Source of the DNA: Escherichia coli
GTDB taxonomy: Bacteria; Pseudomonadota; Gammaproteobacteria; Enterobacterales; Enterobacteriaceae
NCBI RefSeq assembly: GCF_030013205.1
Contig: NZ_CP122648.1
Reading direction: 5' to 3' (one strand)
DNA length: 64,000 nucleotides
Shown: positions 62,334-63,696 of the stretch, one piece after another
Layout of the letters: the number at the start of each line of letters is the position of its first letter
Position numbering within the stretch: position 1 is the first letter of the stretch
Position numbers and translations under genes: made by a program
The notes under the pieces: model-generated
Seen by the model: only the letters and a program-made list of their open reading frames with translations
What the model was told of the DNA's origin: nothing
Databases searched by the model: none

Positions 62334-62723
62334 TCAGGCGGCTGCACCCGCCGGTTTCTCATACTTACTGATAGTGATCTCGACCTTCCCTTTCGGGATA
62401 ACCGGTCCCCACTCCACCAGCATTCTTTTCACCTGTCTGTCGTCTTCCCACACACCCGCGTGGGTCAGGGCGTCAAACAGCGCCTTGTTATAGTTGTCCA
62501 GATCGCGGATCCGGTTATCCGGAGGAAACAACACGATCTCCACTGAAGCAGGTGCCGACGTTGGTTTCGGCAGACGACGTAACTGCTCAACTATTGCTGC
62601 GCACGCCGCGCTCTGAAATTTTCGCCCCGCCTCGCTTATCAGGCTCTTACCAGCAAATGCCCCTTTGTTGGGGTGTCGCCAGTACGTGTTCACACTGGGC
62701 GGGAAAGGCAGGATCAACTTCAT
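62334..62723 (-). CDS. rusA: Holliday-junction resolvase RusA (129 aa)
   Basis: MKLILPFPPSVNTYWRH...RDLDNYNKALFDALTHAGVWEDDRQV.. matches RusA catalytic Asp motifs. Confidence 0.85.
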   Translation of the reverse strand: MKLILPFPPSVNTYWRHPNKGAFAGKSLISEAGRKFQSAACAAIVEQLRRLPKPTSAPASVEIVLFPPDNRIRDLDNYNKALFDALTHAGVWEDDRQVKRMLVEWGPVIPKGKVEITISKYEKPAGAAA

Positions 62724-63046
62724 ACTTTCAGGCCCCTCTCATGTAACCAGTGGGCTGCACGCAGCCTGGCGTTCTCCTCACCGGCAAGCAGTGCGCGGAT
62801 GATACCGACCGCTTCGCTGTCGTCGTCCTTCACTGCGGTATGAAGCGTTATCCCCCGGGCCACGCCACGCTTTATCGTGATGACGCCTTTTTTCTCCAGT
62901 GCGCGAAGATGCTCCACCGCTGCATTCACCGAACGGTATCCCAGCATGGTTGCCACCTCCTGATTGGTTGGCGGAAAGCCACGCTCTTGCTGGTAAGAAA
63001 TCAGCATATCCAGCACCTGCTGCTGGCATTGAGTTAACGTCGTCAT
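62720..63046 (-). CDS. LexA-like winged-HTH DNA-binding-domain-only protein (108 aa; no S24 peptidase domain)
   Basis: MTTLTQCQQQVLDMLISYQQERGFPPTNQEVATMLGYRSVNAAVEHLRALEKKGVITIKRGVARGITL is collinear with the LexA N-terminal domain (..[65 protein letters not shown]); ORF ends after ~108 aa. Confidence 0.7.
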   Translation of the reverse strand: MTTLTQCQQQVLDMLISYQQERGFPPTNQEVATMLGYRSVNAAVEHLRALEKKGVITIKRGVARGITLHTAVKDDDSEAVGIIRALLAGEENARLRAAHWLHERGLKV

Positions 63047-63696
63047 GCCGCCATCTCCCTGACAAGTTTTTCTGCCTGCTGGCGAACCTGCGCCAGAAAC
63101 GCCTCACCACATGCCTCAAGTTCATCGCGCCCGATGTAGCTGATTGCCGGTCCCTTCCAGGTCTTGTCGAAAACAGCAATAGCACCAGCGAAGAAAGCGC
63201 CTGTCGGCACCTGCTTCTCATCCTTCGGGATAAACCAGGCAGGCAGTTCAAAACCAATACGCCCGCGAATAAAAGCAATATGGTCCGCATCTTCCGGCCA
63301 CCACACTTCGCTGGTGGCAGCTTTGATCAGGAAAACATAGCGCCCGCCCTTATCACGCATGGCACTGGCATGTTTCATGATGTAACGCATGCCGGTGATG
63401 TATTGCCCCTCATGCTGACTGGCGCGGCTGTATGGGGGATTACCAAAGGCAGCACCTTTAAGCTCCGCAAGACGTTCTGACCAGTCATGCGCCAGCGCGT
63501 TGTCTTCCGCCGTGTAATACGCGGCACATTTGGCGTTATCACCGTCAGTGAACAGATCCAGAACAAACGGACCAAACAAGGTGTTAATTCCCCAGAAAAT
63601 GTTGTCCGGCGTGCGCCACTGATCGCCCACTTCCTTCAGTTCATGGGCTGGTTTGTTCCGCAGTTCTACCAGCGCCTGGCAATATTTATTACTCAT
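63043..63696 (-). CDS. Phage N6-adenine DNA methyltransferase (Dam-like, 217 aa)
   Basis: GNPPYS catalytic tetrapeptide (NPPY motif IV) and phage-Dam-like N-terminus (..WRTPDNIFWGINTLFGPFVLDLF..). Confidence 0.75.
   Translation of the reverse strand: MSNKYCQALVELRNKPAHELKEVGDQWRTPDNIFWGINTLFGPFVLDLFTDGDNAKCAAYYTAEDNALAHDWSERLAELKGAAFGNPPYSRASQHEGQYITGMRYIMKHASAMRDKGGRYVFLIKAATSEVWWPEDADHIAFIRGRIGFELPAWFIPKDEKQVPTGAFFAGAIAVFDKTWKGPAISYIGRDELEACGEAFLAQVRQQAEKLVREMAA

Follow-up and report, generated by a model that had tools for sequence, protein, structure and literature searches.

A stand-alone LexA-type winged-helix protein with a two-helix tail encoded in the early operon of lambda-like enterobacterial phages

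LexA represses the SOS genes of E. coli and is inactivated by self-cleavage when RecA* is present. A defective lambda-like prophage at dusA encodes a 108-aa protein that resembles the DNA-binding part of LexA and nothing else of it, which raises the question of what a LexA domain of this kind does for a phage. It might hold SOS promoters closed as a repressor that RecA* cannot turn off, or the captured domain might have been given another task. We analyzed the gene, its neighbours and its relatives, starting from the 64-kb stretch of E. coli DNA in which it lies (hereafter the window) and from an earlier note on that DNA, which had proposed that the prophage carries its own module for rewiring the SOS response.

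An intact LexA-domain gene in the early operon

The gene lies on the minus strand among the following features.

62720–63046, minus strand: stand-alone LexA-type winged-helix gene, 108 aa (ORF list, PF01726, PHROG 362, PGAP)
62720–62722, minus strand: stop codon of this gene
63043–63696, minus strand: phage Dam-family N6-adenine DNA methyltransferase (dam), 217 aa, with the motif GNPPYS (PF05869, TIGR01712, PADLOC)
62334–62723, minus strand: RusA-family Holliday-junction resolvase (rusA), 129 aa (PHROG 34, E 5e-57)
60128–62314, minus strand: remainder of the early-right gene string, made up of the next three genes
61505–62314, minus strand: KilA-N protein
60508–61503, minus strand: DUF968/HNH-like protein
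60128–60505, minus strand: antiterminator Q

Pfam matched residues 1–65 of the 108-aa protein to PF01726 (LexA_DNA_bind) over the whole model (1–65 of 65, E 3.4e-19), and phmmer returned the N-terminal domain of E. coli LexA (1lea, E 6e-16) from the PDB. No Pfam match to Peptidase_S24 (PF00717) was obtained in the protein, whose chain ends at residue 108. The protein is therefore unable to self-cleave. Its score against TIGR00498 (lexA) was 70.3 bits, under the cutoff of 110.95, which sets it apart from LexA orthologues. PHROG 362 was matched end to end (residues 1–108 against profile positions 1–106 of 106, E 2.6e-59), and RefSeq WP_000210187.1, a "LexA family transcriptional regulator", has the same length and context. 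PADLOC gave no meaningful defence-system match for the protein. The description in the earlier note, a LexA N-terminal domain lacking the S24 autopeptidase, thus agrees with the profile and PDB matches, with the structural superposition given below and with the absence of S24 from the window.

A LexA domain without its protease could also be a fragment of a longer, frameshifted lexA-like gene. A tblastn search of the whole 64-kb window with the LexA C-terminal domain, in all frames, gave a best E of 4.4, and the frame downstream of the gene is taken by RusA, whose reading frame covers the stop codon. The length of 104–108 aa recurs across thousands of copies. Comparison with the copy of phage SfII revealed 9–10 synonymous and 2 non-synonymous changes (dN/dS 0.06–0.07), indicating purifying selection; neither an S24-bearing in-frame extension in relatives nor neutral evolution was seen. 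These results rule out a broken lexA, and the open reading frame stands alone. At 50% identity to the N-terminal domain of E. coli LexA, with an alignment that continues through the hinge to A88-G89, opposite the LexA cleavage site A84-G85, the protein also points to an origin in host lexA.

The gene was already known, having been catalogued since orf42 of phage SfV and carrying its own PHROG and RefSeq name. Annotated copies include SfV orf42, SfII_44, cdtI orf48 and mEp460_046, and others occur in Stx2 phages. The copies in SfV, SfII, cdtI and mEp460 are 95–100% identical to the 108-aa protein, with dam and rusA flanking them in the same way, and the protein of the window is a member of this family (PHROG 362) with nothing material to set it apart. 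Among 5426 complete E. coli genomes, 2232 (~41%) carry the gene, nearly always between dam and rusA. Homologues of 40–53% identity in Cronobacter, Kosakonia, Enterobacter, Cedecea, Klebsiella and Salmonella keep its length, tail and position. A locus search with the family alignment returned only copies of 98–100% identity, in mosaic neighbourhoods. A full-text literature search found no study of the PHROG 362 family.

The genes dam, LexA-domain gene and rusA are chained on the minus strand by 4-bp ATGA overlaps, that of the rusA start falling on the stop of the LexA-domain gene. From dam to rusA the minus strand contained no convincing terminator and no convincing or strong internal promoter. 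The LexA-domain gene is transcribed within the rightward early operon, in the order replication genes, (perC), dam, LexA-domain gene, rusA, kilA-N, DUF968 and Q; in the window, perC/yfdN upstream of dam is only a remnant. The lambdoid early-right slot between the replication genes and Q is occupied in the same manner in SfII, cdtI, mEp460, mEp390 and other genera. As a part of this operon, the protein is made after infection or prophage induction, a time at which host LexA has been destroyed.

Dam matched PF05869 (E 1.2e-45), scored 255.6 bits against TIGR01712 (phage N-6-adenine-methyltransferase, cutoff 97.05) and was matched over its full length by MTase_II of PADLOC. With its equivalog score and NPPY motif it resembles the phage Dam family (Dam of T1, HP1 and VT-2/933W), and the earlier identification of the upstream, translationally overlapping gene as an NPPY-motif N6-adenine methyltransferase is borne out. 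Characterised phage Dam members recognise GATC. RefSeq phage records name this gene "phosphoadenosine phosphosulfate reductase", a label derived from PHROG 33262, which is a fusion family. A strict linkage of dam and the LexA-domain gene was rejected: prophages of Enterobacter, Cedecea and Klebsiella carry the homologue with no dam upstream of it, as do mEp390 and SfIV. Synteny indicated that rusA, not dam, is the most constant neighbour: the LexA-domain gene lies directly upstream of rusA in SfII, cdtI, mEp460, mEp390 and prophages of four other genera. Dam is thus an ordinary phage Dam-family methyltransferase, tied to the LexA-domain gene by operon position and not demonstrably by function.

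Taken together, the gene is almost certainly intact, under selection and one of the delayed-early genes of lambda-like enterobacterial phages, encoding a stand-alone LexA-type winged-helix domain with a private two-helix tail, derived by capture of a host lexA that was truncated shortly past the hinge and the region of the cleavage site, and containing no S24 protease or dimerisation domain.

Fold, DNA-contact residues and C-terminal tail

The protein was divided into two parts.

62843–63046, minus strand: residues 1–68, LexA-like winged helix-turn-helix (AF2 model, 3jso superposition, LexA alignment)
62723–62842, minus strand: residues 69–108, family-specific tail of a linker and two helices (AF2, family alignments)

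AF2 predicted helices at residues 6–22, 28–35 and 40–52 and strands at 56–58 and 66–68, with pLDDT of ~89 across residues 1–68. The earlier note had proposed an alignment and structure prediction against the LexA N-terminal domain as a check; on Foldseek comparison, the model superposed on DNA-bound LexA (3jso) with an rmsd of 1.0 Å over 68 residues at 50% identity. The protein therefore shares with E. coli LexA the fold, the helix-3 motif S-x-N-A-A-x-E-H-L, the R-G-I wing and similarity through the hinge to A-G. It differs in lacking the S24/dimerisation domain with its Ser119/Lys156 dyad, in the replacement of R28 and E44, in the addition of an unrelated two-helix tail, and in being encoded by a phage in an early lytic operon, whereas lexA is an autoregulated host gene.

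The recognition helix of the 108-aa protein reads RSVNAAVEHLRAL, and that of the subfamily in the window, RSVNAAVEHL, is still very LexA-like. For the LexA residues that contact DNA we relied on PMC3091678 and PMC5999292 as secondary sources; S39, N41, A42 and E45 of LexA helix 3 are retained, which is four of the five contact residues on the list of PMC3091678, and R64-G65-I66 of the wing is invariant in the family alignment. R7 of LexA is a cysteine in the 108-aa protein. The closest full-length LexAs with a Ser/Lys dyad conserve R28 and E44, and every family member examined has other residues there, N, Y, M and V being among those at position 28 and V, A, F, T or L standing at position 44. 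Positions 42 and 45 vary in other subfamilies, E45 giving way, for example, to G, D, L or I. The hosts of these subfamilies share one SOS box, and to judge from the alignments, the variation would agree better with operators that diversify from phage to phage than with one fixed target in the host.

In the tail, AF2 placed helices at residues 78–88 and 93–105. The tail contains the motif EAxxIIRALLAGEENARxRAxxWLHERG, the family form of which is IRALLxxExxARxxAxxWLxxxG, and it is conserved down to 40% identity (homologues of 40–53%), with A97 and L101 invariant. A search of the tail against PDB sequences gave a sole and non-significant match, the dimerising hairpin of the HOIL-1L LTM (E 0.4). 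For an AF2 model of a linked dimer, we aligned 17 family members, each entered twice in tandem with a 30-residue Gly-Ser linker between the two copies. The model had a pTM of 0.35, with pLDDT <50 in the linker and hinges, and therefore lent no support to dimerisation through the tail.

SOS boxes and dinI in the prophage and its relatives

The earlier note had placed two LexA boxes upstream of a phage dinI gene in the same prophage. The features concerned are as follows.

42296–42339, plus strand: two canonical LexA (SOS) boxes, CACTGTTTATCCATACAGTT and CACTGTATACAAACACAGTA (SOS-box matrix)
42355–42603, plus strand: DinI-like gene (dinI), 82 aa (NF007893 DinI, E 3e-20, below the equivalog cutoff)
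41196–42293: dusA-type integrase, adjoining dinI

The pattern CTGT-N8-ACAG occurred exactly twice in 64 kb, at 42296 and 42324; at least two occurrences were also found in 14 of 100 shuffled sequences, and the count alone is unremarkable. On the SOS-box matrix each box scored 21.3 bits, a value that falls among those of authentic E. coli boxes (12.9–27 bits). The two are spaced 28 bp apart at a TTGACA-17-TAAAAA promoter, one within the spacer and the other just downstream. Their matrix scores and their placement in the promoter directly upstream of the DinI-like gene mark them as real SOS operators. In the prophage that holds the LexA-domain gene, the dusA end is where the integrase and dinI are located. 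The earlier observation is thus confirmed. The boxes are ~20 kb from the LexA-domain gene, and dinI is the sole prophage gene with canonical SOS boxes.

Phage cdtI has the same tandem pair of boxes. In Klebsiella phage Kp4865-4, an SOS box of 24.9 bits heads a cluster of dinI, a hypothetical gene, the homologue, DUF968 and Q, and in some Klebsiella and Cedecea/Enterobacter prophages an SOS box shortly precedes the LexA-domain gene. In a Cedecea/Enterobacter prophage, a 21-bit box was found ~440 bp upstream of the homologue. Among 80 near-identical viral-contig loci bearing the gene, a strong SOS box occurred inside cI in ~32 and in the late region in ~33, all within 6 kb; as every locus counted carries the gene, these numbers have no baseline from gene-less phages. 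A dinI-like gene was present in 130 phage records and the LexA-domain gene in ~50–60, and many phages have both. A strict dinI linkage was rejected, as the overlap is large but incomplete, and SfII has the gene and no annotated dinI.

Possible targets of the LexA-domain protein

From its sequence and predicted structure, it is plausible, if short of probable, that the protein takes the place of LexA on CTGT-type operators resembling SOS boxes, as a substitute that resists cleavage. Having no S24 protease or dimerisation domain, it cannot be turned off by RecA* via self-cleavage. It would then re-close SOS promoters during phage development, both at the phage dinI boxes and at host SOS genes. 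Binding of this type is made plausible by the four retained helix-3 contacts, the invariant wing, dinI with its two strong boxes, the box-headed cluster of Kp4865-4, the boxes near the gene in the Cedecea/Enterobacter prophage and the viral-contig loci, and the many phages that have both genes. Set against it are the family-wide loss of R28 and E44, the change of R7 to cysteine, the variation of other subfamilies at positions 42 and 45, the missing LexA dimerisation domain and the 20 kb that separate the gene from the only canonical boxes; SfII, with the gene and no annotated dinI, speaks against a module of the two. Dimerisation is normally given by the LexA C-terminal domain, and here it would have to be supplied by the two-helix tail or by contacts made on DNA. 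On its own, the DNA-binding domain of LexA leaves sulA-lacZ unrepressed, and repression needs fusion to a dimeriser; LexA two-hybrid assays are built on this principle (PMC7595419). The 108-aa protein resembles the LexA(1–87) fusions of that assay in joining a LexA DNA-binding domain to a foreign C-terminal module; those fusions are engineered and repress the SOS promoter only if the added module dimerises (PMC7595419), whereas the phage protein is natural.

A larger proposal builds on such binding and is correspondingly tentative. The protein would be a RecA-proof LexA surrogate in the lambda-like phages, Stx2-converting ones among them, of ~40% of E. coli genomes, with the tail in place of the dimerisation domain. 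SOS promoters would be re-closed in lytic growth, in a two-part SOS shut-off together with DinI, and the protein might perhaps also act on the boxes in cI and near the late operon.

The domain may instead have drifted to an operator of the phage itself, for instance near Q and the late genes or in the immunity region, where it would activate or repress phage genes with no direct action on the host SOS response. This is a possibility of some weight, which we nevertheless consider doubtful. Its precedent is gp6 of GIL01, a tectivirus of Bacillus thuringiensis: this truncated homologue of LexA, similarly diverged at 44% identity to the LexA of its host, binds GaCACAnnTGTGaC and not the Bacillus LexA box, the site being a non-LexA palindrome over the −35 element of the late promoter P3, which gp6 activates (PMC6182141). 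As described there, gp6 is a truncated LexA homologue just as the 108-aa protein is by its PF01726 match and 3jso superposition, and it is likewise made early in the lytic programme of a phage whose biology is tied to SOS. The two differ in that gp6 has a 14-residue extension completing the wing and the LexA-domain family a helical tail of 40 residues; GIL01 is a tectivirus and the carriers of the family are lambdoid siphoviruses or myoviruses, in hosts of different phyla; and the target and activator role of gp6 have been established by experiment, while those of the family are putative. In a BFVD search, stand-alone LexA-domain proteins were widespread among unrelated phages, and the tectiviral ones were only distant structural matches (23–29% identity). 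A change of operator is also favoured by the loss of R28 and E44, by the differences at positions 42 and 45 between subfamilies whose hosts share one SOS box, and by the fixed slot just upstream of the module of the late regulator Q. However, the recognition helix of this subfamily remains very LexA-like, SOS boxes recur near the gene in several phages, and no candidate operator emerged: a search of the 32.7-kb prophage for CTGT/ACAG and ACAG/CTGT pairs at spacings of 0–20 found nothing enriched beyond the two dinI boxes.

The constancy of rusA suggests another role, in which the protein would be an accessory DNA binder for phage recombination and replication and act in concert with RusA. It might, for instance, direct or adjust the resolution of junctions, or tag the phage DNA. 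NinH of lambda, a small Fis-like DNA binder encoded beside the Rap/NinG nuclease, offers a model for it. The gene is found immediately upstream of rusA, usually with the 4-bp overlap, in subfamilies of 40–50% identity whether or not dam is present, and the conserved tail could serve as a protein–protein interface. We nonetheless judge this role unlikely. Klebsiella phages carry the gene without rusA, SfIV has an intact gene next to a rusA pseudogene, and other lambdoid phages, such as DLP12/phage 82, presumably have rusA without the LexA-domain gene. In the nin region, the order of genes largely reflects position, and neighbouring genes of these operons regularly overlap by 4 bp. A further reading retains the SOS response as the target and dispenses with operator-bound repression: the protein would act as a monomeric decoy that displaces LexA dimers from SOS half-sites, or as a pseudo-substrate whose hinge and A-G engage the S24 active site or RecA*. 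The LexA alignment that runs to A-G at the cleavage-site position and the association in several phage genomes with dinI, which encodes a modulator of RecA*, would agree with it, as would intermolecular cleavage by the C-terminal domains of LexA and CI, which is known from Kim and Little 1993 according to the citing passage of PMC8951638. The A-G dipeptide is not conserved across the wider family, however, and AF2 predicted the segment to be helical, unlike the strand-loop of LexA, which makes this reading highly improbable.

Should the protein prove to be a LexA mimic that resists cleavage, prophages that are common, Shiga-toxin phages among them, would actively reshape the DNA-damage response of their host after induction. 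This would have a bearing on mutagenesis, on toxin release and on whether rival prophages and colicins are induced; the toxin output of Shiga-toxin phages depends on the SOS response. Should it prove to be like gp6, it would provide a second, independent case of a phage that made a captured LexA domain its own transcription factor. Since inducible phages that bear the gene (SfII, mEp460 and cdtI) are in hand, both outcomes are open to simple assays.

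The LexA-domain gene and its overlapping neighbors

The ORF listing of the window revealed three minus-strand ORFs chained by 4-bp ATGA overlaps:

63043-63696, minus strand: phage Dam-family N6-adenine methyltransferase, 217 aa (PF05869, E 1.2e-45; TIGR01712; GNPPYS)
62720-63046, minus strand: LexA-domain protein, 108 aa (Pfam LexA_DNA_bind, E 3.4e-19)
62334-62723, minus strand: RusA, 129 aa (PHROG 34, E 5e-57)

The 108-aa product covered the full 65-position LexA_DNA_bind model and had no Pfam match to the S24 domain. It aligned with the N-terminal domain of E. coli LexA at E 6e-16, and its AF2 model (mean pLDDT 83) superposed on DNA-bound LexA (3jso) at 1.0 Å across 68 residues with 50% identity. 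An earlier note had described a protein collinear with the LexA N-terminal domain and lacking the S24 autopeptidase domain, overlapped by an upstream NPPY-motif methyltransferase gene. This description of the genes is correct as written. The sequence-based assignment of the 217-aa product to the Dam family is secure, with a TIGR01712 score of 255.6 bits (cutoff 97.05) and a GNPPYS motif within the translation. The roles usually proposed for phage Dam proteins are restriction evasion and replication timing. In RefSeq phage records this gene is named 'phosphoadenosine phosphosulfate reductase', which is an annotation artefact; the wrong name appears to have propagated from PHROG 33262, a fusion family (495-position profile) with the Dam domain as its C-terminal part.

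We also looked for the alternative raised in the earlier note, a longer frameshifted lexA-like gene carrying an S24 domain, and rejected it: no S24 remnant was present, rusA takes up the next frame, and the length is kept. A tblastn search of the 64 kb with the LexA C-terminal domain gave nothing better than E 4.4. Among 5.8 billion proteins searched there were thousands of copies, none with an S24 domain, and intact copies were 104-108 aa long. Compared with the SfII copy, the gene showed 9 synonymous and 2 non-synonymous changes (dN/dS 0.07); all 5 changes from the cdtI copy were synonymous.

Residues 69-108 are not LexA and form two predicted helices in the AF2 model (78-88 and 93-105). The tail pattern EAxxIIRALLAGEENARxRAxxWLHERG was kept in relatives of only 40-53% identity from Cronobacter, Kosakonia, Enterobacter, Cedecea, Klebsiella, and Salmonella. 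LexA similarity extends via the hinge to an A-G dipeptide in register with the LexA cleavage site, A84-G85; members of the wider family do not share this dipeptide, and we read it as a putative relic of the truncation point.

Family distribution and prophage setting

The gene belongs to a real, annotated family that is already known. PHROG 362 ('transcriptional repressor') matched the 108-aa protein end to end (E 2.6e-59), and PGAP names the gene 'LexA family transcriptional regulator'. Copies of 95-100% identity lie between dam and rusA in SfV (orf42), SfII (annotated 'LexA DNA binding domain protein'), cdtI, mEp460, and many Stx2a/Stx2c phages, and 2232 of 5426 complete E. coli genomes carry the gene, with up to four copies each. 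Structural neighbors of the stand-alone LexA-domain type occur in many unrelated phages, tectiviruses and mycobacteriophage Wildcat among them. A full-text literature search found no experimental study of the enterobacterial family.

It was rusA, and not dam, that stayed constant as the neighbor of the gene. A replication gene directly abuts the homologue in Enterobacter prophages and mEp390; Cedecea/Enterobacter prophages have other small genes on either side of it, still followed by rusA, DUF968, and Q. Judged from these arrangements, the rusA linkage is strong but not absolute, because Klebsiella phages lack rusA and Shigella phage SfIV has a rusA pseudogene. The SfIV copy has no dam and adjoins this pseudogene; a frameshift splits rusA there (L014 2824-3219) and the upstream LexA-domain gene is intact.

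The prophage is inserted in dusA, with integrase and dinI at one end and what is left of the 5' part of dusA at the other (NZ_CP122643.1 4704068-4736684; window 41196-64000 and beyond). The host lexA-dinF operon is only ~4 kb past the latter end. The minus-strand order is tail genes, truncated tape-measure and terminase, lysis genes, Q, DUF968, KilA-N, rusA, the LexA-domain gene, dam, a perC/yfdN remnant, replication genes, and cro; the window ends short of cI and the early-left genes. The prophage is defective: truncated tape-measure and large terminase genes lie side by side, implying that a large deletion removed head and tail genes. Between dam, the LexA-domain gene, and rusA the minus strand showed neither a terminator nor a good promoter, so from gene organization the LexA-domain gene probably belongs to the rightward early operon.

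Unlike SfII and most of its relatives among phages, this prophage lacks perC/yfdN upstream of dam at window ~63700-63800, seen as a ~400-bp alignment gap with only an 84-bp remnant annotated by PGAP. From the terminase region to Q (window ~55000-60100; L002 15931-20976), the prophage cargo comprises a lipopolysaccharide core heptose(II)-phosphate phosphatase gene, tRNA-Gly, and an AraC-family regulator; the opposite strand adds a DUF6731 gene and a hypothetical gene. The single-base difference from RefSeq NZ_CP122643.1 (ETEC4079 chromosome) across the 24.9-kb overlap compared (window 39128-64000) was an A8 run at 58751 in place of A7, intergenic between the AraC-family and DUF6731 genes of this moron cluster.

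SOS boxes and the proposed pairing with dinI

Sites were scored with a matrix derived from 21 known E. coli operators, whose training sites score 12.9-27 bits. The only two strong sites in the window prophage were tandem boxes of 21.3 bits each in the dinI promoter, as described earlier; cdtI has the same pair. At window 28783-28802, TACTGTATATTCATTCAGGT scored 20.6 bits, a value that is not independent since the sequence is in the matrix list, where it is identical to the uvrA/ssb operator.

In 80 near-identical viral-contig loci (L018-L097, 897 kb), 67 sites reached 17 bits or more; they clustered at two places, one within cI and the other in the late region 4-5 kb downstream. The box inside the cI ORF was perfect or near-perfect (TACTGTTTTTATATACAGTA or TACTGTTTTTACATACAGTA, up to 27 bits); ~32 of the 80 loci carry it, with the LexA-domain gene 3.5-4.5 kb further downstream. 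It was also located in two further cI genes:

SfII (L010) 29167-29186, equal to L001 9283-9302: cI-internal SOS box
L003 836-855: cI-internal SOS box

In both, ~210 nt separate the box from the start codon, which places it between the HTH and S24 domains, a position conserved among cI genes of different phages. It may act as a roadblock or an internal promoter, or serve antisense control. The second recurrent box (TACTGTAAAAATAAACAGTG, 22.3 bits) was found in ~33 of the 80 loci, 3.9-5 kb downstream of the gene; in cdtI (L011 44083-44102) it falls where orf56 ('putative DNA methylase') begins, with Q on one side and the lysis genes on the other. Neither the cI-internal nor the TACTGTAAAAATAAACAGTG-type box was present in the window prophage. 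In SfIV, a 23.8-bit box (L014 3265-3284) lies between the rusA pseudogene and kilA-N, ~100 bp upstream of the latter, whose product differs at its N-terminus, suggesting a possible LexA-controlled KilA-N/antirepressor-type gene. A Cedecea/Enterobacter prophage has a 21-bit box after a terminator-like hairpin, ~150 bp upstream of the gene preceding the homologue.

The earlier note had proposed that dinI and the LexA-domain gene form an SOS-rewiring module. The boxed dinI is indeed in the same prophage, but it lies 20 kb off at the integrase end, and the pairing in the window is co-residence only. Both genes occur in many phages (2H10, cdtI, mEp460, SKA5, and several PhiR phages), and probably in Stx2c phages, because each gene's search counts 15 such records. 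A dinI-like gene is found in 130 phage records and the LexA-domain gene in ~50-60; SfII has the latter and no annotated dinI. A functional pairing finds its best support in the Klebsiella arrangement. In Klebsiella phage Kp4865-4 (L017), a 24.9-bit box that overlaps a -10 element (TATACT) stands at the head of a cluster of dinI, a 96-aa hypothetical gene, the LexA-domain homologue, a 67-aa gene, DUF968, and Q. The first three genes form one cluster both here (L017 2293-3300) and in L013 (1-969). This subfamily has an N-terminal extension and an altered helix 3 (SSSNAVLLHLRAL).

Candidate roles of the LexA-domain protein

Helix 3 of LexA contacts DNA through S39, N41, A42, E44, and E45 (PMC3091678); at these positions the 108-aa protein reads S, N, A, V, and E. 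In an alignment with the closest full-length LexAs carrying the Ser/Lys dyad, R28 and E44 were nearly constant and position 45 was variable in the latter, whereas R28 and E44 were both lost in all phage family members examined. Positions 42 or 45 were also altered in several subfamilies. The predicted DNA-reading surface is LexA-like, not identical.

That the protein acts as a cleavage-proof LexA stand-in is possible, if somewhat short of an even chance. Kept helix-3 contacts and an invariant R-G-I wing favor it, as does expression timing, which from operon position would fall when host LexA is gone. SOS boxes recurrently lie close to the gene, the proximity figures being drawn solely from phages that carry it. 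However, the LexA dimerization domain is missing; a bare LexA DNA-binding domain does not repress sulA unless fused to a dimerizing partner (PMC7595419), and a linker-joined dimer AF2 model, with a pTM of 0.35, lent tail dimerization no support. The family-wide loss of R28 and E44 also argues against a stand-in, and contact residues vary between subfamilies though the hosts share a single SOS box. GIL01 gp6, a truncated LexA and the sole characterized analogue, is 44% identical to the LexA domain of its own host; it binds a different palindrome and activates the late promoter (PMC6182141). By this analogy, a private, phage-specific regulator is a somewhat less likely reading than the stand-in. 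An accessory role for RusA or recombination seems improbable, and decoy or pseudo-substrate ideas still more so. Reading the protein as an SOS mimic is reasonable, with no better than an even chance against a diverged, phage-specific role.
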